DNA of 64,000 bases from assembly GCF_963921235.1 (NCBI RefSeq), contig NC_086097.1, positions 60,452,001-60,516,000 of the forward strand. The letters run 5' to 3'. The notes beneath the pieces were generated by a model that was given only the letters and a program-made list of their open reading frames with translations, was not told the DNA's origin and did not search any database. The stretch is from Mobula hypostoma. Taxonomy: Eukaryota. Of the stretch, positions 3,921 through 58,224 are shown piece after piece (the first letter of the stretch is position 1; each line of letters begins with the position of its first letter). The position numbers were made by a program, and so were the translations under genes.

Positions 3921-5542
3921 TGTTAGATTAGATTTGATTAACTTTATTTGTCACACCTACATCAAAATATGCATTGAAATGAGTCACTCGCATCATCAAA
4001 TCACCAAAGGTTGTGCTGGGCCGGCCACAAGTGTTGCAAGAATTCCAGTACCAAGATTGGATGCCCACAGCTCAGCAACTCTAACTCTAACCCATACATA
4101 AGAACATAAGAAATAGGAAAAGGAGTAGGCTATCTAGCCCGTTGAACCTGCTCTGCCAGTCAATAAGATCATGGCTGATCTGGCCATTGACTCAACTCCG
4201 GCTACCTGCCTTTCCACCAAAATCCTTAATTCCCCTACTATGCAAAAATCTATCCAACCTTGTCTTAAATATATTTACTGAGGTAGCCCTCATTGCTTCA
4301 TTGGGCAGAGGATTCCACAGATTCACCACTTTCTGGGAAAAGCAGTTCCTCTTCATCTCCATCCTAAATCTACTCCCTTGAATTTTGAAGCTCTGTCCCC
4401 TAGATGTAGTCTCACCTACCAGTGGAAACAATTTTTCTGCCTCTATTTTATCTATCGCTTTCCTAATTGTATATGTTTCTATAAGATCTCCTATCATTCT
4501 TCTGAATCCCAGCAAGTACAGTTCCAGGTCACTCAATTTCTCCCTATAGTCTAACTCCCTCATCTCTGGAATCAACCTGGTGAACCTCCTCTACATTGCC
4601 TCCAAAGCCAGGATATCCTTCTTCAAGTCAGGTGACCAGAACTGCGGTCAGCACTCCAGCTGTAGCCTCACCAGTACCCTGTACAGTTGCAGCATAACCT
4701 CCCTAGTCTTAAATTCAATCCCTCTAGCAATGAAGGCCAATATTCCAATTACCTTCTTGATAGATTGCTGCACCTGCAAACTAACCTTCAGTGATTCATG
4801 CACAAGCACTCCCAAGTCCATCTGCAATTTTTTAAGTGGATGACCTCGCATTTACCAACACTCTACTCCATCTGCCAGACCCTTGCCCACTCACTTAACC
4901 TATCTATATCTCTCTCTGCAGACTCTCCTTATCTTCAGCACAATTTGCTTTTCCACTCAATTTAGTATCATCAACAAACTCAGATGAACTACACTCGGTC
5001 CCCTCTTCCAGATCGTTAATGTATATCATGAACAGTTGCGGGCCAAGCACCAACCCCTGCGGGAAAACCGCTCACCACTGATTGCCAACCAGAGAAACAC
5101 CCATGTATCCCAACTCGCTGCTCTCTATTAGTTAATCCTCTACCTCTATCCATGCTAATACATCACCCCCAATTCTATGCATTCTTATCTTATCCATAAG
5201 TTTTTTATGCGGCACCTTATCGAACGCCTTATGGAGATCCAAGTAAATAACATCCATCTGTTCCCCTTTATCCACTGCACTCATTATATCTTCAAAGAAC
5301 TCCAGTAAGTTTGTCAAACAGGACCTGCCTTGCTGAATCCATGCTACATCTGCCTGATGGATCCATTTCTTTCTAGACGCTGCGTCTGCCTGATGGATTG
5401 ATTTCTTTCCAGAAATCTTTGGAAAGTGGGAGGAAACTGGAGCCCGCAGAAGAAATCTGTGCCATCACAGCAGGAATTAGCCCTGAGCTTAGAGCCAGCA
5501 CTTTAATTGTGTTACGCTAATCGCTACACCACTGTGTCGCCC
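3921..5542 (-). mobile_element. V-domain SINE split by a CR1 insertion (pieces ~3921-4095 and ~5415-5542)
   Basis: Both pieces match the reverse complement of the SINE at 39662-39978 (tail GACAAATAAAG, V-domain TTTCCTCCCAC). Confidence 0.65.
4096..5412 (-). mobile_element. CR1 LINE, 5'-truncated, decayed RT and 3' UTR
   Basis: ORF fragments TNLLEFFEDI..VIYLDLHKAFDKVPH, DLGVLVHESLKV and FSQKVVNLWNPLP; (TTCTTATG)n tail. Confidence 0.95.
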
Positions 5543-6048
5543 TTCAGCACTTAACAGTGCATAAAAACATTGAGTGAAAATAATGTTCATACTTCTCCAG
5601 TTTACACCATATGTTTCACTGTACTGTATGCAGAACTACAGTAATGTTTGCATCATCAATCAACCATGAGAAACAGTTGTTAACAATAGAAGCAAAACAT
5701 CTCTTAGAGGAATCTTTTCGAATCAGAGATATAACAGGACTGTTGTGCTAACCTACAGCAAAAGAGATTTTGGTGAGTCCACAGATAATTATTTTCTAAG
5801 AAAATACAAATATAATTTGGAACATTTCAGTAGCATGAATGTATTTTTTCATCTCTTGTGTGTGGAAAGGTTATTTCAATGGTCAACTCTCACACTCTAA
5901 TCGAATCAATAGATACACAACTCATAGTTAAATTAATCCCTGCTTTTAATATTAAGAAATATTGAGGAATATGCAAAATCTGAGTCGGACTGCAGCTACC
6001 TTCTTGCGTTATATGTATATATATATATCTATATCTATCTATCTATCT

Positions 6049-6562
6049 ACTGTGCAAAAGTCTTAGGCACTCATGTATAGCTTTGGTGGCTAAGACTCTG
6101 GCATCAGACTAGTAATTTTATGCATTACACAGTACTGCTGCAAAGAAAATCATGATATATGTGAATGATAGTAATCTGATTCTGATATGGGTGTCTGTTG
6201 TGGACTGAAAGTGGGAAAGGATCAGGGAGAGAGGAACCCTGGTTGGGAAAAGGAGAAGGGAGAGGGTAGCACCAGGGAGACATTCTGCAATCATCAATAA
6301 ACCAATTGTTTGTATTCAAATGACCTTGCCTGGTGTTTCACGGCTGGGTGTGTCTGCACCCATGTCATCCCTCGCCCATGGTACTCCTTCTCTGTCACCT
6401 GACCCACCTTCCTCCCGTGCTGCTCCACCTTCACCATTCCCAACATCCTTTGCTCCTGCCAGATTTACAAACTTGCTCTCTGTTCCTCTTTGACAAGTTC
6501 AGTACTGTGCGAAGGATTTCGGCACCCATGCTATATTTTTGCGCCAGACTTTGCTCAGTACT
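6049..6562. mobile_element. Non-autonomous Tc1/mariner-like element with short hairpins at both ends
   Basis: Starts TACTGTGCAAAAGTCTTAGGCAC, ends GACTTTGCTCAGTACT, and carries a second TIR-like copy CAGTACTGTGCGAAG at about 6500. Flanked by TA/TATC repeats. Confidence 0.5.
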
Positions 6563-7322
6563 TTATATATATAGAGATAGATATTTGATTTTCTGGCAGA
6601 AAGGTAACGAGCAACATTAAAATAAATAGATGCCTTCTAGTGATAGTCTGGTCAGAGAAAAGAGCAAGTGGTTAATTAAAAAACTATTGCTTCAGGAATT
6701 GTGCTCTAACTGGTTTTCCAGATTTCTGTAATGCACATTAATGAAATATACTTATCTGTAAGACCCAAAAAGAATCACCTTAGGCTTCAGAATGCAATTA
6801 CTCCCCTGCTTCCTTGCACTTGCGTGATTGGTATTCTACATCAGGACCACTGAGAATGCTAACAGAAGACAACGTAGCAGATTACACCGCAAAGTATCAT
6901 ATATCTTGCAATTTTCTCAAATCAATCCAACTTCTATAAGACATTAATAAAAATGTATAAAATTAACTTCCAGCCTTCATTACATATTTTATAAAATATG
7001 TAAAATATTGAAGATAAAGAAACTGGGTCTCGTTTGATTAGAGCTAAAAAATAGTGAAATTCAATAGCAAGGTTAAAAATCAGAAAAGACTACATAAGGC
7101 AGTAAGACACTATTTATTATGCAAGGGGAAAAGGTTATGCTTACCTTTAAAAGAACAAAAATAATATTTTCAGGGATTTCATTTCAATGAGACAAAGTAT
7201 AGTTAGATATTACTATTCACGTGGCTGCACCCTCTTTAATATTATTTGCCATATCATAATGAACAAACCTGTATATGCTACATGATGAACAAACTTTTGA
7301 AAGTTTCACTTATAACAAGTTC

Positions 7323-7548
7323 CACACATCAAAGTTGCTGGTGAACGCAGCAGGCCAGGCAGCACCTCTAGGAGGAGGTACGGTCGACGTTTCAGGCCGA
7401 GACCCTTCGTCAGGACTTTGAAGGGTCTTGGCCTGAAACATCGATTGTACCTCCTCCTAGAGATGCTGCCTGGCCTGCTGCGTTCACCAGCAACTTTGAT
7501 GTGCATTGTTTGAATTTTCAGCGTCTGCAGAATTCCTCTTGTTTGCAT
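7323..7548. mobile_element. Fold-back mini-insertion made of two inverted PLE terminal repeats
   Basis: Arms ~7325-7417 and ~7418-7504 are near reverse complements. 13-bp TSD TTATAACAAGTTC at 7310-7322 and 7549-7561. Confidence 0.9.
7382..7417 (-). ncRNA. Minimal type I hammerhead ribozyme motif (near intact)
   Basis: Minus strand AGTC-CTGACGA-AGGGTCTCGGCCT-GAAA-CGTC-GACC. Confidence 0.7.
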
Positions 7549-7974
7549 TTATAACAAGTTCATTCAGTTCATGAATACTTCGTTAATTTGTAAAATAAAT
7601 CCAAATAAATCCAACTAAATTAGCAGTGCAAGTGGTATTCCACATAAATCCATGTTCACAGTTCCCAATAGGTGCCTATAATTCTCAACAATTACTATTT
7701 TAATTCTTCACTCACTCCAAAAGCTAATACACACTGAAAATAACTTCCTAATTAATTCTTTACCTCATATGTAACACTAAAAACTTACAACTCAAATGCT
7801 TTTTCAAAACAATTTTGGATAACAACAAATTTCATGACATATGTCAGTGATATTAGGGATTATTATGGCCTTTGAATATCAGATGCTAATTCAAATGAGA
7901 ATCATTCTTCATTTCTCAAAGTAAATTAAAAGCAGTAATTAATGTGAAGTTAAAAGAACACCTTTGCAAATAAG

Positions 7975-8019
7975 AAAACAAGAGAAAATCTGCATATTGC
8001 TGGAAATCCAAGCAACACA

Positions 8020-8057
<38 letters not shown>

Positions 8058-8497
8058 GGAACTCAGCAGGCCAGGCCAGCATCCATGGAAAAGTGGACTG
8101 TCGATATTTTGGGCTGAGACCTTTCATCAGGACTGGAGAAGGGAAGATGAGGAGTCAGAGTAAGAAGGTGGGGAGAGGGGAGGAAGAAACACAAGGTGTA
8201 GGTAAAACCTGGAGGGGTGAAGTAAAGAGCTGAGAAGTTGAATGGTGAAAGAGATACAGGACCAGAGAGGGGGGATCTGATAGGAGAGGACAGAAGGCCA
8301 TGGAAGAAAGAAGAGGGGGAGCACCAGAGGGAGGTGATGAGCAGATAAGGAGATAAGGTGAGAGAGGGAAATGGGAATAGGGAATGGTGAAAGAGAGGGG
8401 CAGGCATTGCCGTGAGTTTGAGAAATCAATATTCATGTCATCAAGCTGGAGGCTACCCAGATGGAATACAAGGTGTTACTGAGCTGTGGCCTCATCA
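7975..8497 (-). mobile_element. Penelope-like element 3' fragment with internal (CA)n
   Basis: Same family as 802-1308. 8-bp TSD CAAATAAG at 7967-7974 and 8498-8505. Core CTGATGA kept, GAAA mutated to AAAA. Confidence 0.85.
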
Positions 8498-9164
8498 CAA
8501 ATAAGTAATACTATTTGTGTAGTACAAGCTGGCCCATAGACTTAGAGATTTGGTTTGCAAAATGTTGTCCATGAGACATTTGCATATGCATCAGCCAAAC
8601 ATTGAAACATCAAACCAGGCTACTACAGCTAAGTTATCTGACCTGAAAGGAACCATTTGTCAGACATAAGATACTGAAGTAAACAATGTCGTTGTAACTA
8701 TGGAAATTGTACTGAATCACTGGTTGTACTTCGATCTTAAAGGTATAAGAATTTGATGTACTTTGAGCTTGTGAGACTCTACTGAAGGTGTCTCCATGAG
8801 AATGGCTGTTTGTCGTGATGAATGCAGTCTTCCATTTCCACAACTTTTCTAATTTCTCCAGTGCCTTAGTCACAGTCATAACAAATGATATTAACCCTGA
8901 TTAGGATTCTAATTCGGTGCCTTTGACATCTTCCATATTCATTCAGACTGGATGTTTCCATTTGTGCTTCATTAACTTTGTTGGATAGTGCTTCTGAATG
9001 CTAGTAGACATTTTGCATCAGCCTGTGTAATTCCAGTGGTTTTTTGTTAAAGTGTCATCTTAACCTTATTCAGAATAGTTACAAATTAATCCAGTATTTC
9101 CACTCTTCTAACTACAAGATAGTTCCGTTAGTAAAAGTTCTCCCTTAATTGCTCTTTATCCTTG

Positions 9165-11894: not shown

Positions 11895-12225
11895 TAGAAA
11901 ATCCACTTTTGAGCAAGTAGAATAATGATAGAGTATCGAAGCATAAATGCCACTGTTTTGATGGCACTTTGTTCCTTGAAGTGTCTCCAATAATTCCCAT
12001 GACCTGCTAACATTTCTAGCACTTATTATTTATACACTGGAGTATTTCTTCCAGGCCACTGGATTTCTGAAGAGGGAGAGGTACCGGAGCAAGGGAAACT
12101 TTTACTTGGCAAAGGATCATGGCAGATTCGATAATTCGGCCCTTAGCTTTCAGAGAATTACCAGGCTATATTGTAAGCTTTAAAAGTGTTTAGCTTACAC
12201 AGCTCTTCTGGAACACAGAATCACC

Positions 12226-31800: not shown

Positions 31801-33618
31801 AACCAGCACCTTACCTCAGCCATGCTTTATCTACAGGGAATGCGAGGTGTGGGTATGAATCACAATACACTTTGTTAAGCAACTCTTACTGTTTTTTTTG
31901 CCATCTGCCTTTCTATCTCACTTGTAGCTGTTGGCATTATTTAGGTTCTATGTTGCTGCTTTCTGGTCACTAGTTTTCTATGCCTCTTTACAAACAAGAA
32001 TTATATAAAAGAGAAAGGTTATTAGTCAGTGTTAAATGCTATACCTATCTCATATCACCTCCAATACAGGAGGCTGAAGCACTCATATTGCTTCTATTCA
32101 GGCCTTTTCTGTTTACAGTTTCATTCTCCTGGTACTTCATTGCTACTTGTAATTCTTTTCATAAAACAAAACTTCTTACAAATCATTTATTTTCTGACTA
32201 GGTCACAGTCCAGCACCTCAACATGAATCAAAGTGCTTACAGTTGACACTGCAGTTTACATGCTTTGCATAAAACAACTTTGATCTGGTTTTCATTGAAG
32301 TGCTAATCATCGTTCTTCAAAATGAAGGTAATAGATCCGGGAAGCTGACTATTTGGCTTTTGCGCAGTGTTTGCCAAATGAATAAAAAAAATTAATAACC
32401 CTATTGTTGAAAAGCTTTCATATTCATAATAGCAGTTTCATTTTTTAAATATTGCACTTCTGATGTCACAGAAGAATTACTGCTAAACCAATTTTCCCTA
32501 CATTTCTTTTCTCAGAGGTAATGCAACTGCAAACTGCCTACAGTTTGTAATGTAAGATGTAATTGGTTTAATTATACTACAGAATCAATTTCAATTAATA
32601 CAATAATGTGTGTCATAATAAAGTCAAAGACACACCTTCGAGATAATTACACTGGAGCAGTAGAAGCTGGAAATGAGGAAGTTCTAACAATGATTTGGGA
32701 AATGTGTATTCTTACAAATAAGCATGCCCAAGAGGAAGACAGAATCAACCTTGTTGCTCTATAAAAACCTGTTTTGCACAATAGGTCAGCCAGTATCTGC
32801 TGACAGAAGTATTTTTCATCATCTGAATATTTAAAAGGAATTTGAGATGGAGGCAGAGTGTGGCTGTGTAACCTTGCAAAGCTAGAGACCTGGACACTAA
32901 AGTTTTTTTTCATTTCCCACCCAGCAGCTCTGTCTGTTGCTTCCCTAGTGGTGTCAACAGAGGCAACAGGGTTCCCAACACACAGCAGTCATGAAGTGAT
33001 CAGCAGTGGAAAATGTGGTGTATATAAAATTTTATTAATGTTTGAGTAATATTGTTCGATTAAGCAATCCTAGTATGTTTTGATTACAGCTCAGCTTTTA
33101 ATACTGTCATCCCCTCATAACTAACCCATGTATTTCAATACATCCATGTGCAACCGAACCCTCAATTTCCTCACTTGCAAACTGCAGTTAGTTCAGATTA
33201 TAAGCAGCATCTCCACAATCTCCATCAGCACAGGTGCACCATAAGGCTGTGTGCTTAGCCCCCTGCTCCACTCGCTTTACAGTTACGACTGTGGCTCAGC
33301 ACAGTTCCAATGCCATATCCAGCATTGTTGATGACACTATTGTCGTTATTGTCAAAGGTGGTGATGAATCAGCATATAGAAGGGAGGCTGAAAATCTGAT
33401 TGAGTGGTGGCATAACAATAACCTGTTACTCAATGTTAGCAAGACCAAAGAGCTGATTATTGACTTCAGGAAAAGAAAAACAGAGGTCCTTGAGCTATCA
33501 GAGGATCAGAGGTGGAGGTGATAAGCAACTTTAAATTCCTTGGTGTTCTCATTTTAAAAGACCTGTCCTGGATCCAGTACGCAAGTGCAGTTACGAAAAT
33601 AGCACGGCAGTGCCTTTA

Positions 33619-33656
33619 CAGTCCTGACGAAGGGTCTCGGCCTGAAACGTCGACTG
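33619..33656 (+). ncRNA. Minimal type I hammerhead ribozyme motif, intact core
   Basis: CAGTC(stem I)-CTGACGA-A-GGGT/CTCG/GCCT(stem II)-GAAA-C-GTC-GACTG(stem I'). Predicted cleavage 3' of C33651. Confidence 0.8.
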
Positions 33657-33715
33657 CGCCTCTTCCTAGAGATGCTGCCTGGCCTGCTGCGTTCACCAGC
33701 AACTTTGATGTGTGT
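33620..33715 (+). mobile_element. 96-bp PLE terminal-repeat insertion inside Rex1
   Basis: 9-bp TSD TGCCTTTAC at 33611-33619 and 33716-33724; nearly identical to the reverse complement of 7323-7417. Confidence 0.9.
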
Positions 33716-34009
33716 TGCCTTTACTTCCTTATGACTTTGTGAAGATTTGCAATGACATCTAAAACTTTGCAAATCTATACAGATGTATGGCGGAGAGTAT
33801 ATTGACTGGTTGCACCACAGTCTGGTATGAAAACACTAAAGCCCTTGAATGGAAAACCCTACTGAAACAGATAGATGTGGCCCAGTCCATCATGGATATA
33901 GCCCTTCCCACTACTGAGCACATCTGCACATGGAGCATAGCTGCAAGAAAGGAGCATCCATCATCAGGGCACCCCACTGTTGTATCCTATCAATTAAATA
34001 AAGGCATGC

Positions 34010-36722
34010 TGTTGCAATGAACGGGTGAACCCAAACGCAGGACACTGGCACGGAGATAGAGTTAGAATGCAGACGAGGGTGTGAGCATGGCTGCAGCTGA
34101 ATAGCAAACAGGAGGGTGAACGGAAAGGCAGGAGGCAGGCAAAACTTATCTTGACATGGAGAGTCAGAGTTACACAGGCAAACCTCGGTTCCGAAGTAAA
34201 ACTTAGAATACACAATCCTAAGCGGCCGGAAAAGTGATTTACCACACTAGCTGAAACAACAACTTGGCAATAAGTGGATACAAAGCCGGGGTTTTAATGC
34301 TGCAGATTTAGATGAGAATCTGGTGCTGCAATCAAGGAGCCCAAGAGAACACGGAGAATAGGGAATTAGGAGAATATGAGGACTTAACGGCCGGGATCAT
34401 GAATACTGGCAAATACTGGATTGTCGCGATGGAAGTCTCGGATGAGGGAAGGGTCTAAGATGAAGGAGCGGGGAATCCAGGTGTGCTCCTCAGGACCGTA
34501 TCCCTCCCAATCGAAGAGGTACTGGAAACCCCTGCCTCAACAACGCACATCCAGTATTGGCCGGATGGTGTAAGCTGAGTAATCGTCGATGACCCGTCCG
34601 GGCGGATGAGGTTCAGCAGAAGGGCACAAAGCACTGACAGACATAGATTTCAGTTGGGAGACGTGGAACCTGGGATGAATGTGCATGAGGTTGTATAAGG
34701 CATTGTTGAGGCCGAATCTGGAGTATTGTGTTCAGTTTTGGTCACCAAATTACAGGAAGGATATAAATAAGGTTGAAAGAGTGCAGAGAAGGTTTACAAG
34801 GATGTTGCCGGGACTTGAGAAACTCAGTTACAGAGAAAGGTTGAATAGGTTAGGACTTTATTCCCTGGAGCGTAGAAGAATGAGGGGAGATTTGATAGAG
34901 GTATATAAAATTATGATGGGTATAGATAGAGTGAATGCAAGCAGGCTTTTTCCACTGAGGCAAGGGGAGAAAAAACCAGAGGACATGGGTTAAGGGTGAG
35001 GGGGGAAAAGTTTAAAGGGAACATTAGGGGGGGCTTCTTCACACAGAGAGTGGTGGAAGTATGGAATGAGCTGCCAGACGAGGTGGTAAATGCGGGTTCT
35101 TCTTTAACATTTAAGAATAAATTGGACAGATACATGGATGGGAGGTGTATGGAGGGATATGGTCCATGTGCAGGTCAGTGGGACTAGGCAGAAAATGGTT
35201 CGGCACAGCCAAGCAGGGCCAAAAGGTCTGTTTCTGTGCTGTAGTTTTTCTATGGTTTCTTCTATGGGTCTGGGCAGTTTGAGTTTGACCACCGAGGGGC
35301 TGATGATGCTCTCGATCTCGAATGGTCCGATGTAACGAGGGGTGAGTTTCTTTGACTCGGTTTTGAGGGGGGATGTCTCCTGAAGAGAGCCAAACCTTCT
35401 GATCAGGCTGACAGTTGGGTGCTGGAATCCAGTGGCGATCGGTGATACGCTGGTTGTGGTCAGCGCAGAGGAGCAGGGCCGAGCGTGCACCCTTCCAGAC
35501 CTTGCGGCACCGGCGGAGATGTGCCTGAACTGAAGGCACAGCAATGTTGTCTTTGTTGGCAGGAAACACAGGGGGTTGATCGCCTAGGGAGCATTCGAAA
35601 GGAGACATACCGGTGGTGGCACTGACCAGGGAGTTGTGGGCATACTCAACCCTAGGGAGATGTGTGCTCCAGGATGACGGGTTACTGGAGGAAATGCAGC
35701 GCAGTGCTGCTTCCAAATCCTGATTGGCTCACTCCATCTGACCGATAGTCTGTGGATGGAAACCAGAAGACAGACTTACTGAAGCTCCGAGGGCTTGCAG
35801 AAGGATTTCCAGACTTGGAAGATGAACTGGGGGGCCCCGGTCAGAAACAATGTCAGAGGGAATTCCATGAAGGCGGAAGACATGTTGGACAAGGAGGTCA
35901 GCTGTTTCACGGACTGTAGGGAGTTTGGGAAGGGCTATGAAGTGTATGGCTTTGGAAAACGGTCCACCACGGTGGGTACAGCATTGTTCCCATGTGAAGG
36001 GGGTAGTCCAGTGACGAAATCAAGAGCTGTGTGGGACCAAGGGTGGCCAGGGACAGGTAGGGGACGAGGCAGTCCAGCAGGTGGCTAATGGGATGCTTTT
36101 CTGTGGGCACACACAGTACAGGCAGAGACAAAGGAGCGAGTCTCAGCATCCATGGTGGGCCACCAGAAATGTCACTTCAAGAGGGACAGGGTTCGACAGA
36201 TTCCAGGATGGCAGGCAAACCGGGAAGTATGACCCCACTGAGGAACCTGAGAATGGACAGAATCAGCCACGAAGGGACGATTGGGGGGGGGGGGCATCGC
36301 CTGGGTCAGGTTGAGTCCGTTGGGCCTCCTTAATTATGGACTCAATCTCCCAGGCGAGGACAGCCACAACACAGGATGGTGGAAGGATGGTATCAAGATT
36401 GGAGGGGTCCTCTTCAGGGACCTACTGACAAGAGAACATCTGGCTTCACATCCTTGGAACCAGGATGGTAGGTGAGGGTAAAATTGAAATGGCCAAACAA
36501 CAGTACCCAACGGGCTTGGTGGGAGTTAAGGCGTTTAGCTGTCTGGATGTATGCCAGGTTCTTATGGTCTGTCCAGATGAGGAATGAGTGTTCTGCTCCC
36601 TCCAGCCAGTGCCTCCAATCCTCCAAGGTGAGTATGACGGCCAGCAACTCCTGATTCCCAATGTCATAGTTCCATTCAGCGGGGGATAGACAGCGAGAGA
36701 AGAAGGCACAGGGACGGAACTT
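34010..36722 (-). mobile_element. Ty3/Gypsy chromovirus (Sushi-like) 3' half: RNase H, integrase, chromodomain, 3' LTR (~34010-34402)
   Basis: [80 protein letters not shown] ends CTGCGTTTGGGTTC..GCAACA. Confidence 0.92.
34688..35263 (+). mobile_element. CR1 3' fragment nested in Gypsy integrase
   Basis: [25 protein letters not shown]. Removing it restores [18 protein letters not shown]. Confidence 0.95.
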
Positions 36723-36727
36723 TTGTT

Positions 36728-36950
36728 CTGGGACAGAGGAGATATCAGGGGTATGTTTTTTATGCAGAGAGTGGTGAGTGCATGGAATGGGCTGCCGGCG
36801 GATATGGTGGGGACTTTTAAGAGACTCCTGTATAGGTACACGGAGCTTAGAAAAATAGAGGGCTATGGGTAACCATAGATATTTATAAAGTTCGTTACAG
36901 CTTTGTGGGCCGAAGGGCTTGTATTGTGCTGTTAGGTTTTCTATGTTTCT
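36728..36950 (+). mobile_element. CR1 3' UTR fragment
   Basis: CAGAGAGTGGTGAGTGCATGGAATGGGCTGCC..GGGCCGAAGGGC; (TTTCTATG) tail. Confidence 0.85.
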
Positions 36951-37345
36951 ATAATGGGTAAGCAGTTCATCTGATGTTATTTGTCCCTTAGTTTCCTTGA
37001 CTGCTCTTTCACACCTTTCTAACCATTCCCATTTTGCTCCTGTCTGCAGCAGTGTGTTCAATGAATGCAGCACTGCAGCAATGATTGGGAAAAACTGGTG
37101 GTAGTAGTTTTAAAGTCAAGTATGACCTGAGTGGCGATACATTTTCCGGTTTCGGTGCCTGTAGCACTGCTTCATTCTTCTCTTGTGATTTACGTAAGCC
37201 ATGCTTATCAATGAGATTTCCATAATATGAGATTTCATTTTTGAAAAACTCACTTTTCTCTCTTTGACCATACTCACTCAGCCTGGTAGGCACTTTACCA
37301 AGGATCTGGAGCTGTCGGAAACACTTACTGCAGTCACAGGACAAC
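36951..37345 (-). mobile_element. Ty3/Gypsy RT-connection fragment of a second family
   Basis: EFFKNEISYYGNLIDKHGL..AVLQAPKPENVSPLRSYL and [23 protein letters not shown]. Confidence 0.85.
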
Positions 37346-39661
37346 TCCTGCAACCACCACAGAGGAGGCCCAAGAACCTGAGATTATTTCATAGTCACAA
37401 GTCTCACCTGCCAAGCAGAGTAATTTTCCTTGTCAGGAAAGACATTATCCCACATGAGTAAGAAATCCTCCATAGTGAGTAGATTTTTAGGCCTGAATGG
37501 GACAATTTAAAGTTTAATCAAGCCTCTTAGTGAACATCTACTGAAAGTCTGCATTTAGTGCAAGAAAAGACTGGAGGGCTACAGGGAGTGAGAGAGAAAC
37601 AGAAATTGGGGAGATCAAAATGATAGTATCATTGAGTCAATGAAATTTGATATTTTGCATATGGTTGTTGCCATAGAAACAACATATTAAAATTGGTTTG
37701 AATTAAATATTATCTATCATTCAGAATATTTATTACTTTTTGGTGACTTATAAAAGATGTTTATTCTACTGCAAAGCAATAAAAGTGAACCATTTTATGT
37801 TGAATTGGGTGATACAAAGTCATCAAAGCAAGGAGTGGCATAAGGACAGTTGAAGGCTCCCATGAGGCACCAGATGGAGAACTGTTGTCCCCTTGCTCCC
37901 TGAGAAGAGCTAGAAAGAGGACATATCTCTGAAGTTGACACCTTCCCACTTGGCTTTGCTGCTGAGTTTCTGAAAGGGGACACTCCCTGGGCACACTATT
38001 TGTTTTATATATTGTCAATCTTCATTTGTGACAGATTGCATGCATTCTTCAATTTAGTTCAATTAACATTCAAATGACTAGAAGCATTCTAAGCCTGCCT
38101 CCTTAACCAAGCTTCCTTATGGACATGTACTGCAAGTCCGGACTTTGTGCAGGAGGTGATCAAAATCAAAGTCAAAATCAAAGGCGAGTTTTTTTTTGTG
38201 ATTTGCACAAGTGCAATGAAAAACTTATGTGCGACAGCATTAGAAACACAAAGCATGATACAAGCAGCCTCTGCAAAAATAAACATAAATTATCTACAAC
38301 TAGAACAAAAAAAAAGAGAAACCTATGCAAAGTAGGTGAAGTGAACATAATGTTGTTAGACTGCAGTGAATCAAGTTTTGCTGGTTGGTTCAAGAACCAA
38401 ATAGCTAAAGGGCTTTTGTACCTCTTGGATAATAGCAGCTGCAAAAAGATAGAAACTCATTCCTCAATTTCAGACCATTGAGGAACAAGGAGAAATTCTT
38501 GCTATGCAACCTAATGTTTTGTTTCTGAAAGTGCATATATTCAGATTAACTATGAGTGCCATAAAATTCGGCTTTGCAAGGTGTTTTAGCACATCATATT
38601 CAGCACCTCAGACTAATATCATGTCTCTAAATAAAATGCCACCTCTATCTAAAGCAGCCCTAGAATCCAAACTCTGCTACCTGCTACTTGGTCTTTTAGG
38701 TTATTACATAAGCATCCTGACAGAACAGTCAGTAACTCTCATTGTTTTTATGGATGTATATTTAACACAGCTTTACTGGGGTTGGATCGTAAAGATTGAC
38801 AACATGAGGAGTATTGAGCAACGACTGATCACGTAGTTCGCACTTGGACATGGTCGACAGCATCACATCAAATGAGGTATCCTGTTAAAGGTCAGTATTG
38901 ACACTGTACCAAATCTGAGAGGTTACTTTCTTGAATTAAAAATGAATACAATGCAAATCTTATCGTGAAAAAAATAAATCTACAGCTTACGTTCCTAAAT
39001 TATTCATTCTGTGCCTACTCACTATCCATTCTAGTCATCCGTTGAATGTTTGGATACTTAACCAGACTGTAAATGTAGCTGTGAGGTGAATATGCAAATG
39101 ATAGAAAAAAACATCCATTACATTCAAGCTTGTCTTGTCCAATAATACAATAGCCTGACAAAACTATCACTTGTAGCATTACACTTTGCATGGTAGATGA
39201 ATACTTAATTATAAGCAAAGCAGAAAATGTAAAATCTGTTTAGCAAAGGGACCTATCAAGATACACCAAGGGCAAAATTCAATAGCCCCTAAAAGCAGGT
39301 GCAGAGATAGTGACATGCAATTAACTCACATGTTGATTGCAGTGCAGGAATAGGCCATCCTGGAGGACGTCTGTTCCTTTGTTTGATCCTTGCATCCAGC
39401 TGGCTTTAACAGCATGACTCATTCGGTTGGAGGCATCTGTCAGAAACCAATATCGTAAATTGCTTGTGTACATTGAAATGACCTCAAAACACATCATGTT
39501 GAATGACTGATAGGGAAGGGCAATATATTCTTGTCTTGAGAGTGACACAACTATCCTGTTAAAGCAGAGTTAAAACAAACCTGCACTTCTTACGAGAGAG
39601 AGGTTTGCGGCAAATGCTGGAAACATGTGAATATGACCTAGAAAAGAATGAATTGAGATTT

Positions 39662-45047: not shown

Positions 45048-45258
45048 AACACTGAAAATGCTGGAGGAACTCAGCCGGCCAGGCAGCATCTATGGAAAAG
45101 AGTACAGTCAACATTTTGGGACAAGACCCTTCAGCAGGACTGCTGAAAGGTCAACTCTACTCTTTTCCATAGATGCTGCCTGGCCTGCTGAGTTCCTCTA
45201 GCATTTTGCATGTGTTGCTTGGACTTCCTGCATCTGCAGACTTTCTCTTAATTTGTGA
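45048..45258. mobile_element. Fold-back mini-insertion of two inverted PLE terminal repeats
   Basis: AAAATGCTGGAGGAACTCAGC..TATGGAAAAGAGTA versus TACTCTTTTCCATA..GCTGAGTTCCTCTAGCATTTT. Flanking direct repeat ATTCACTT (45040-45047, 45263-45270). Confidence 0.85.
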
Positions 45259-45812
45259 CTGAATTCACTTTGATCATTTTGATCTAATCAAATAAATCAA
45301 TTCATTATTTGGGATCTAAAAGTGTTTAGCAAGAATCATAATAGCTAACATCAATCAAACAGTTATATTTTTTGAGCTGATTTTGAGCATCTTTCCTTCC
45401 CCACCTCTTTCTGCTTTCCACAGGGATCGCTCCCTACATGACTCCCTTGTCCCTTCGATCCCCCCTATCGCTTCCCACTGATCTCCCTCCCAGCACTTAT
45501 CCTTGTAAGTGGAACAAGTGCTACACATGCCCTTACACTTCCTCCCTCACCACCATTCAGGGCCCCAGATAGTCCTTCCAGGTGAGGCGACACTTCACCT
45601 GTGAGTCGACTGGTGTGATATACTGCGTCCGGTGCTCCCGGTGCGGCCTTCTATATATTAGAAAGACACAACACAGGCTGGGAGACCATTTTGCTGAACA
45701 CCTATGCTCTGTCTGCTAGAGAAAGCAGAATCTCCCAGTGGCCACACATTTTAATTCCAGGTCCCATTCCCATTCTGACATGTCTATGCACGGCCTCCTC
45801 TACTGTCAAGAT

Positions 45813-46364
45813 TCTTCTAGGGTGCATCACTACCTGGTATGGAAGTTGTCCTGTCCAAGACTGAAAGAAGCTGCAGAAGATTGTGAACACAGCGCAGCAC
45901 ATCACATAAACCAATCTTCCATCCTTGAACTCACTTTACACCCCACTCTGTCGGAGCAGTGCTGCCAGGATAATCAAGGACACGACCCACCCAGCCAACA
46001 CACTTTTTGTCCCTCTTCCCTCCGGGAGAAGGCTCAGGAGCTTGAAGACTCGTACGGCCAGATTTAGGAACAGCTTCTTTCCAACTGTGATAAGACTGCT
46101 GAAAGGATTTGGGCCGTACCCTCCAAATATCCGAACGTGCCTCTCGTTTTTTTTTGCAGTACCTTACTTTCCATTTTTCTATTTTCTATTTATGATTTAT
46201 AATTTAAAATTTTAATATTTACTAATTTTTACTATTTTTAATATTTAATATCTGTAATCCAGGGAGTGGGAAGCGCAGAATCAAATATTGCTGTGATGAT
46301 TGTATGTTCTAGTATCAATTGTTTGGTGACAATAAAATATAAAATATAATAAAGTATAAAGTAT
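45813..46364 (+). mobile_element. Rex1/Babar 3' fragment nested in PLE GIY-YIG
   Basis: ARIIKDTTHPANTLFVPLPSGRRLRSLKTRTARFRNSFFP. AAGAT duplicated at 45808-45812 and 46365-46369; host frame LLYCQD|EATLRL rejoins. Confidence 0.9.
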
Positions 46365-46491
46365 AAGATGAAGCCACACTCAGGTTGGACGAACAACATC
46401 TTATGTTCCGTCTGAGTAACCTCCAACCTGATGGCATGAACATTAACCTCTAACTTCCATTAATTCCCCTCCTCCACTTCTTACCCCATCC

Positions 46492-46492
46492 C

Positions 46493-46571
<79 letters not shown>

Positions 46572-46592
46572 TCTATTTATTTATTTATTTAT
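46492..46592. repeat. (TTTA)n microsatellite
   Basis: Direct reading. Confidence 0.98.
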
Positions 46593-47762
46593 TTTACCCT
46601 TTTTTTCTCTCTCTCTTTTTTCTCTGTCTGTCCCTCTCACAATAACTCCTTGCCTGCTGTCCAACTTCCTCAGGTTCTCCCCTCCCCCTTTCTTTCTCCC
46701 TAGGTCTCCCATCCCATTATCCTCTCCCTTCTCCAGCCTTGTATCCCTTTTGCCAATCAAATGTCCAGCTCTTAGCTCCATCTCTCCCCCTCCTGTCTTC
46801 TCCTATCATTTCAGATCTCCCCATTCCCCTCCCACTTTCAAATCTCTTACTATCTCTTACTTTAGTTAGTCCTGACGAAGAGTCTCGGCCCAAAACGTCA
46901 ACTGTATTTCTTCCTATAGATGCTGCTTGGCCTGCTGCATTCCACCAGTATTTTGTGTGTTTATCTGAATTTGCAGCATCTGCAGATTTCCTTGTGTTTG
47001 CGATTTTAAACACTTGCCTGTTAGGTTGATATCAGTCACAGTTCTTCACAAAATAATGTGTTATTTTTTTCAGTATTAATGAGATCCTGGCTTGACTCTC
47101 CAAACATGTTGCTTTTTCAATTGCTTTGTAAAATCAATCAGTAACTAAAGATTAGCAATCATTAGGCCATTCAAACTGTTTTCCTTGCTATTTCACTTAA
47201 AAAATTGCCTGAATTAATTATTTCATATTTTTATTATTACAGAGAAAATTCAGCATACCTCCATTGGTGCTATTTTTAATGAGAGCCCTGTTTTTAGCTG
47301 GACTGGATGTTGGAAGCTGGTATTACTAGCAGGTGTATGATTGTTGAAGATTGCAGCTGAAAGTGTTTCCTTTGCGCAAGAAAATCCACAACATCAACAC
47401 TATTCCATCTCTTCTGTTGCTTAGAAACACAGAACAGTACCTGAGTCCCTGGTAGTTCAACATGTTTCTTCTTTCAGATTTCACTTTTTACCTACACTGA
47501 TGAACCTACCTTACTGACCTGATCTATAGCTAATGTCACTTAAAACAGATAATTCACAGTCACAAAGAAGATTGCAGCAATGTGGTGGCTATAGCTGAAC
47601 CTTATTTAATTCCAAACCAATAAAGTTATATTGCTTTTATGATAGTGCTCTCTACTTCTGATAAACTGTAGTGTGTAAAGTCGAGGGCAACCAAGATATT
47701 CAGGTGGAGATGTAACACATACAGTATGAGGTCGGAACACAGTCCAGGTTCAAATTAGTTAA

Positions 47763-48829: not shown

Positions 48830-49368
48830 TGAGACTAATAAAGGAGATCAATATAGTCTTCCAAACACACAAGATCCCACTGGACAGATCGGCAGTCTAA
48901 TGCCAACATCCTTTCCCAAGTCAACACATCCAACATTGAAGCACTAACTCAGTTCTGATGGGCACATTCTTCCCAAACTTTATGCTAGTTCCTGAAATAG
49001 ACACTCTGTTTTGAGCTCAATCACAGTGAGACATTCGCAGCTGGACAGAGGAAAGAAATTCAAAGATGTTCATGCTCCTTGAAGCATTTCGATGTCCCTA
49101 CCAATTCCTGGGAATCTCAAAACCATTCAAAGTGTAAAGGTGGCACTTTGAGTGGTACTAAGAAGCTTGAGTCCATGTGTTGGGAGTGTGCAGAAGCCCT
49201 GAGTGAATAGTGAAGGATATGCACTACATTGCAAACTAACAATTGTTCATAGATTCAACTCTTCCTGTACCACCTGTGTAACACTTTATGGTTTCCACCT
49301 GAGCCTCATCAGCCAGCTCAGAACCTACAAAACCAAATGGAAGCAAATCATACGTGATCCCGAGGGAA
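48830..49368 (+). mobile_element. Old RTE-clade LINE 3' end
   Basis: HWTDRQSNANILSQVNTSNIEAL; terminal Cys/His-like CTTC..LISQLRT; heavily decayed. Confidence 0.6.
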
Positions 49369-58137: not shown

Positions 58138-58224
58138 CAACACACACAAAATGCTGGAGGAACTCAGCAGGCCAGGCAGCACCTACGGAAAAAAGTACAG
58201 TCGGCGTTTTGGGCCAAAACCCTA
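58138..58224 (-). mobile_element. Short PLE terminal-repeat fragment
   Basis: CACACAAAATGCTGGAGGAACTCAGCAGGCCAGGCAGC..CAGTCGGCGTTTTGGGCC; truncated within hammerhead stem II. Confidence 0.8.

Follow-up and report, generated by a model that had tools for sequence, protein, structure and literature searches.

A hammerhead-bearing insertion in a LINE fragment

Between positions 33288 and 33990 (forward strand), the window, i.e. the whole 64,000-nucleotide stretch analysed, contains the decayed C-terminal region of a LINE reverse transcriptase (RT), which we take to be of the Rex1/Babar type. A Pfam search of the host LINE fragments in the window gave no match; paralogs carry RVT_1 and PF09004. 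The 9-mer TGCCTTTAC is present twice in this region, at 33611–33619 and 33716–33724 (both forward strand), with a spacing of exactly 96 bp. A paralogous LINE copy (locus L051) contains the 9-mer once, uninterrupted, and the host frame with a single copy reads A-R-Q-C-L-Y-F-L. From this paralogous empty site, we concluded that the intervening 96 bp (33620–33715, forward strand) are an insertion with a 9-bp target-site duplication (TSD), as the first-pass annotation had proposed. The right TSD opens with TGC, three bases that are shared with the element (+97 to +99) and represent a microhomology. In two DNA runs from one sample (X1 and X2), contigs spanned the left junction with no difference, and a join skipping the insert was absent among the joins listed, the contigs being broken in repeats.

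Positions in the element are numbered from the first base of the insert (+1 = window position 33620, the A of AGTC), which places the predicted hammerhead cleavage between +32 and +33. The insert corresponds to +1 to +96 of the pseudo-LTR (pLTR) of a Neptune-like Penelope-like element (PLE), with its 5' end at a junction hotspot and its 3' end at a tail-less site. A minimal type I hammerhead (HHR) is predicted at 33620–33656 (forward strand). It is characterized by a stem I (AGTC, 33620–33623, with GACT, 33652–33655), the core CTGACGA (33624–33630), a bulged extra A (33631), a 4-bp stem II (GGGT/GCCT, with loop CTCG), GAAA (33644–33647), and C17 (C33651), 3' of which cleavage is predicted; a fifth pair of stem I is supplied by C33619, which belongs to the TSD. 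Stem III is replaced by a palindromic ACGT (33647–33650, forward strand) which, judged by its sequence, is unable to close intramolecularly and could pair only in a dimer, as in the dimer model presented in PMC4209133 and in the review PMC6765202. Core, stems and palindrome match the features given in PMC4209133, and the anatomy read by the first-pass annotation was confirmed, with one correction: the 10.1–11.1 pair of the insert is G.U and not the conserved G-C. Among the 41 copies with an intact core (out of 76 sampled), this pair was G.U in 30, G-C in 9 and A.C in 2.

An Rfam search did not call the motif as a hammerhead. The lowest-energy fold of the monomer was a non-hammerhead hairpin (−13.0 versus −9.0 kcal/mol for the hammerhead fold; z −0.93), and the minimum of the dimer cofold was a structure other than the hammerhead, trans-paired ACGU being outside the scoring. 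The hammerhead core pattern was found four times in the window (0.69 expected by chance), with only two matches in the PLE family (7.4 and 33.6 kb). The matches outside the family are located at 12067–12099 (forward strand) and 49291–49312 (reverse strand).

The parent element and its copies

A full-length copy of the element (L140) has a unit of 3515 bp, with a 5' pLTR from −122 to +134, an ATG at +171 and a 3' pLTR whose end is at +100; the insert matches both of its pLTRs at 95 of 99 bases, the other four being different. Its 1043-aa open frame comprises an RT, in which DKG and YIDD motifs are visible, a CX4CxxC linker (CKRNKCYTC) and, C-terminally, a GIY-YIG endonuclease (EN). This single ORF is the one expected of an EN+ PLE, with Pfam matches (RVT_1 on L140, E 5e-5; GIY-YIG on the copy L120, E 0.007) that are both below the curated cut-offs. 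Partial-tandem pLTRs, inverted 5' arms and an optional 30–40-bp tail, also typical of EN+ PLEs, were all observed. A CX2-5CxxC zinc-finger linker between RT and EN marks Neptune, and also Nematis, according to the text of PMC8557442 available to us; placed by this linker, which marks either clade, the sequence is that of a Neptune-like element. The link with a Neptune-type PLE carrying a minimal type I hammerhead, made in the first-pass annotation, is supported.

Exact matches to the intact HHR motif numbered at least 41,475 in the 3.48-Gb genome, in agreement with the very large genomic load of ribozyme motifs that had been predicted. A 35-mer from the insert had 39,706 exact matches in the same genome, and the ORF start 686. 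All 40 places scored with the 99-mer of the insert were identical over 99 bp, and 20 of the 30 fetched loci identical to it continue upstream into the ORF. A protein search revealed open frames of up to 1092 aa in the family, and several copies (among L138–L157) have open frames of 900–1090 codons, which indicates that the family is active, now or recently. Contigs from presumed RNA runs cover the pLTR; such contigs give neither ends nor levels.

Copy structure was described on the first 100 exact matches to the 35-mer, unselected and all from C1 (0–6.5 Mb). Their 3' ends were bimodal, 57 being located at +89 to +106 and 43 at +123 to +135. The resulting optional tail of about 36 nt agrees with the 30–40-bp tail reported for PLEs in PMC8557442 and with the two adjacent internal RT start sites identified in vitro for a Poseidon element from Anolis (PMC11167929); the 3' end of the insert is the known tail-less priming site. 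One copy, at the edge of its locus, was left out of the classification; the other 99 included 45 copies with an inverted arm, 48 simple copies and 6 direct joins. TSDs with a score of at least 8 (mostly 11–14 bp) were detected in 18 of the 48 simple copies versus 1.1% of mismatched controls, and were found on copies of all lengths. Since both the bimodal 3' ends and the TSDs extend across the family, the 3' end and the TSD of the insert are ordinary for it. Simple, tail-less copies starting at the HHR edge represented 5 of the 99 classified copies, which extrapolates, with a wide error, to about 2,000 among the 39,706 matches. Stand-alone, TSD-flanked copies of about 96 bp (92–105 bp), on whose existence the first-pass annotation had staked its reading, were indeed present elsewhere in the genome (L048/L189, L215, L269, L282, L287, L298, L299, L306, and L307).

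Two further observations were made on the unit itself. Many ORF-start copies (L158–L187) end within the ORF, at about +280 to +350, which suggests a third, rarer priming region. Upstream of stem I, the region from −21 to +2 (e.g. about 2980–3001 in L140) exhibits TACTAAC, which resembles a branch point and reads TACTCAC in the youngest copies, together with a pyrimidine tract and a CAG or TAG that abuts stem I; with this acceptor-like sequence, PLE copies within host introns could act as splice acceptors.

Other copies of the family were observed in the window. A head-to-head copy at 7310–7561 consists of an inverted arm (+95 to +1, 7323–7417) and a forward arm running from +10 through the tail, within a 13-bp TSD (7310–7322 and 7549–7561), and an older head-to-head copy, whose inverted arm likewise ends at +1, is located at 45059–45269. 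The Zn-linker and GIY-YIG region are present in an older, 5'-truncated copy (45388–47010, forward strand; −813 to the tail), interrupted at about 45813–46365 and scoring 78–89% against L140. Its HHR at 46868 is broken by a change from GAAA to AAAA at 46892. Being older and with a broken core, this copy is therefore kin of the insert and not its source; the same motif had been thought to end the GIY-YIG element (45390–47001), which holds for family kinship but not for an intact motif. Older decayed fragments of the family lie on the reverse strand, two of them 3' fragments (803–1311 and 7976–8477) and one a pLTR fragment (58138–58223). Related copies previously listed at 0.9, 7.4, 8.1, 45.1, 46.9 and 58.2 kb were thus recovered, but that at 44.8 kb had no BLAST match at E 0.1 and appeared by eye as a decayed motif.

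The interruption of the GIY-YIG region at 45813–46365 is due to a 3' fragment that is LINE-like and bears an A-rich tail, and the 3' UTR of the same copy contains a long (TTTA)n run (about 46495–46595). The head-to-head pairs (7323–7551 and 45059–45269) fold into long hairpins with scores against miRNA models of Rfam; a mir-789 match at 7366–7462 (E 1.4e-5, under the gathering score) is in fact the inverted PLE pair. Inverted-arm copies (45 of 99 sampled young copies) may give rise to false miRNA calls or to double-stranded RNA. On the reverse strand, ORF fragments occur at about 35100–37400, presumably related to the RNase H, integrase and chromodomain of Gypsy-type LTR retrotransposons, which they resemble.

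Distribution of 5' junctions around the hammerhead

Among the 100 sampled copies, 21 had their 5' end at −6 to +5, while the neighbouring 12-nt bins held 0–7; these were 21 of the 48 5' ends falling within −66 to +49 (p = 3e-9). The aligner placed the 5' end of one copy (L048) at −14, its true start being +1. Junctions were then counted genome-wide at a set of positions, a junction being scored where three bases off the consensus preceded 19 bases matching it, and the counts were normalised for prefix probability and local divergence on the basis of 100 copies of one 6.5-Mb region. Raw (normalised) counts upstream of the hammerhead were 81 (361) at −30, 334 (1352) at −9, 588 (2185) at −3 and 1101 (3988) at 0. 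They reached 3019 (10558) at +1, a count that takes in unbroken older-family copies (3–4 out of 30), and 2380 (10319) at +2, then fell to 1037 (4088) at +3, 489 (1637) at +7, 499 (2613) at +20, 626 (2001) at the cleavage site, +33, and 261 (659) at +43; the junctions listed at −30, −9 and +43 include, by eye, small internal deletions. Normalised counts at +1 and +2 (about 10,500 each) were therefore 4–6 times those at +7, +20 and +33, 5 times that at −3 and 15–30 times those at +43 and −30, and the upstream edge of the peak was sharp. Unbroken copies at +1 numbered 58,527 genome-wide.

Microhomology blurs every junction end by 1–3 nt. Position −3 shares the AGT start with +1 yet was about 5-fold lower, so microhomology alone fails to explain the peak. 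The cleavage site itself was not enriched, the normalised count at +33 (2001) not exceeding that at +20 (2613).

The same position stood out in other sets of junctions. An older subfamily, which has one more pair in stem I (5 bp), gave raw counts of 376 at +1 versus 86 at 0 (about 840 versus 310 after prefix correction), and 14 of the 15 +1 loci examined were true junctions. Among the loose 5' ends listed for L140 in the DNA run X1, which possibly comes from the same individual and includes older copies, +1 was the best supported (54 contigs). In both head-to-head copies of the window (7.4 and 45.1 kb) an arm terminates at +1, and 18 of the 30 unselected +1 junctions were one arm of an inverted pair. 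The 5' ends of 30 ORF-start copies were spread from beyond −1366 to +138, with only 4 near −8 to +6; many templates therefore begin far upstream.

A 5'-junction peak at stem I was not found described in the literature searched (open main texts; Fig. S2 of PMC11167929, on pLTR genomic coverage, may bear on it). A peak at the hammerhead's 5' edge, with none at the cleavage site, offers a clue to the PLE cycle that is new, if modest, and can be tested directly.

Origin of the insert and comparison with known systems

We interpret the insert as a short, tail-less copy of a Neptune-like PLE pLTR, for which RT was likely primed at its internal start site, about 100 nt past the hammerhead, and, again likely, ran off the end of an uncleaved RNA beginning at hammerhead base 1 (probability of about 0.8 for this reading). 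The GIY-YIG domain would nick the target, and RT would prime at the tail-less internal site with the 3-nt microhomology, both steps being modelled on the in vitro work on Poseidon (PMC11167929). The cDNA would then pass the uncleaved HHR and stop at +1, the cause of this stop being our own proposal, and joining would leave the 9-bp TSD.

That the stop at +1 reflects the 5' end of the RNA, i.e. a transcription start, has in our view an even chance. Position +1 sits in a YYANWYY context, which is initiator-like. Such a consensus says little within a tract rich in pyrimidines, and the ACGT misses the DPE position by 2 nt; both points count against a transcription start at +1. Run-off is favoured by the sharp upstream edge of the peak, its independence of stem I length, the initiator-like +1, the internal pLTR promoter reported for D. 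virilis Penelope (PMC2377424) and short re-copies of the HHR core. The latter, of at least 4 bases just before the junction, were observed at 4 of 30 +1 loci taken without selection, compared with 1 in 52 control flanks, a ratio from which 40 prefix-picked loci, not being a sample, were left out; HHR-core re-copying at +1 junctions is suggestive only. A cap-derived G before +1 was not in excess in the young family (25 of the 100 junctions listed versus 29% expected, by eye), which counts against run-off. In the older subfamily, G preceded +1 in 61 of the 100 junctions listed versus 26% expected; some of these G's were traced, in loci L238–L252, to target DNA, inverted arms or short HHR-core re-copies, and the excess could be due to cap copying or to HHR-core re-copying.

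The same stop could arise with no special RNA start if the HHR fold, or a hairpin in the fresh cDNA, made RT pause or release on finishing stem I; among the alternatives to run-off this is the leading one, which we consider possible but doubtful. Folding of +1 to +37 into a single long hairpin, junction rates raised over the whole HHR (+7 to +33) with a drop at +43, and the many ORF-start copies that read well beyond +1 are all consistent with such a stop, as is the frequency of palindromic head-to-head joins at +1 (about 19 of 100 among the junctions listed). RT pausing normally occurs at the 3' side of an RNA structure. Pausing would thus be awaited at +36 and not past the structure; moreover, the peak has a sharp upstream edge, and the 5-bp stem I of the older subfamily did not shift it from +1 to 0. 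Splicing or a joining bias, taken together as the cause of the stop, is distinctly less probable. Short copies derived from spliced RNA, with the boundary as a 3' splice site, are very unlikely: the acceptor-like upstream sequence (branch-point-like TACTAAC, pyrimidine tract, YAG at 0 to +2) and the D. virilis Penelope intron, which extends to the 5' end of helix I (PMC4209133), point in this direction, but the 50 +1-junction loci (30 unselected, 20 prefix-picked) had no common upstream exon, their flanks being target DNA or an inverted arm, and +3 was below +1 and +2 in the junction counts. It is hardly credible that short copies were templated by ribozyme-cleaved RNA. Seven of the 100 sampled 5' ends do fall at +30 to +41; against this, the normalised count at +33 was not above that at +20 and was 5-fold under that at +1, the insert retains the entire motif, and the dominant in vitro substrate in PMC11167929 was uncleaved RNA.

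The first-pass annotation had seen in the insert the youngest and smallest mobile unit of an under-described system. Its youth is supported by 40 places that show full identity over 99 bp. A non-autonomous element in its own right (SINE-like or a retrozyme monomer), with its own RNA and mobilised in trans by the PLE protein, is quite improbable, in spite of the recurrence of stand-alone 92–105-bp TSD-flanked copies and of the simple, HHR-edge, tail-less class (5 of 99). Ends were ragged where a SINE-like family would have fixed ends and private diagnostic mutations, and the commonest five-site haplotypes were common to short copies and to long, ORF-bearing ones; short copies are therefore recurring products and not a lineage. 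Two-thirds of the loci identical to the insert (20 of 30) bear the ORF, 18 of the 30 unselected +1 junctions are inverted-pair arms, and the two tandem arrays checked were local duplications of inverted insertions. In addition, the insert starts 32 nt ahead of the cleavage site, unlike the self-cleaved retrozyme units of PMC7229834, and so is not a ribozyme-excised RNA; it is also devoid of the ORF-start region, which the protein of Poseidon requires on its template (PMC11167929). A distinct smallest mobile unit was thus not borne out, and neither was an under-described system: the insert itself is an ordinary by-product of an ordinary element, here a PLE family.

How PLEs transpose, and what role the hammerhead plays, are presented as open questions in PMC8557442 and PMC11167929. 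As the family is young, has full-length ORFs that are open and provides junctions in the tens of thousands, its copies offer an in vivo map of where cDNA starts and stops. This map agrees with the in vitro finding that cleavage is dispensable, to which it adds an abrupt stop at stem I. Tentatively, transcription may start at hammerhead base 1 and internal priming may yield a strong-stop-like cDNA of 96–135 nt, integrated thousands of times either alone or as an arm of an inverted pair; we regard this extended model as possible rather than probable. If it were true, insertion junctions would record the 5' end of PLE RNA, the ribozyme would be uncleaved during retrotransposition, and each short copy would re-seed a promoter-plus-ribozyme module that could feed the birth of retrozymes.

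Minus-strand strong-stop DNA of LTR retroelements is a short cDNA that is primed internally and extends up to the 5' end of the RNA. If run-off is right, the insert resembles it in reaching the RNA 5' end; unlike strong-stop DNA, it would be target-primed and integrated as is, with no tRNA primer and no strand transfer, and it is not a member of this class.

Compared with Neptune-clade PLEs, as far as described in PMC4209133 and PMC8557442, the family shares an RT with a C-terminal GIY-YIG and a CX2-5CxxC linker, a pLTR minimal HHR with a bulged base after A9 and a palindromic 15.2–16.2, heavy 5' truncation, inverted 5' arms and the optional 30–40-bp tail. Most motifs are solitary, in line with the mostly solitary truncated copies of minimal, dimer-type pLTR hammerheads reported in PMC4209133; such hammerheads are also covered in PMC6765202. 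It differs from these clade members by the G.U at 10.1–11.1 in most young copies, and from the coelacanth and Xenopus PLEs, for which 4,000–9,000 motifs have been reported, by its at least 41,475 exact motifs. For rotifer PLEs, solo pLTRs have been reported, as have TSDs of 8–10 bp and tails (PMC3846280).

The Anolis carolinensis Poseidon element PAc (PMC11167929) is similar in having two adjacent RT start sites that bound the tail, 3' of the HHR, and uncleaved RNA as a template; it extends both strands, which fits the 45 inverted copies out of 99 observed here. The PAc ORF begins inside the HHR, whereas the ATG is at +171 here, and the main text of that study maps 3' priming ends and not 5' stops.

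Retrozymes are described in PMC7229834 as tandem repeats of self-cleaved, circularising monomers derived from pLTRs, and animal retrozymes reach up to 120,000 copies in axolotl (bioRxiv 10.64898/2026.07.22.740005). Near-perfect local tandem triplications of inverted PLE insertions were observed at L308 339–774 and L309 174–1034 (145 and 327 bp, respectively), and are not retrozyme-like. Like the animal non-LTR retrozymes of these two sources, the insert is non-coding and pLTR-derived, carries a type I HHR and has a very high copy number. Unlike them, it is a single, dispersed, TSD-flanked piece that begins before the cleavage site, and the copies of its family are dispersed, single or inverted, instead of forming tandem HHR units bounded by cleavage sites.
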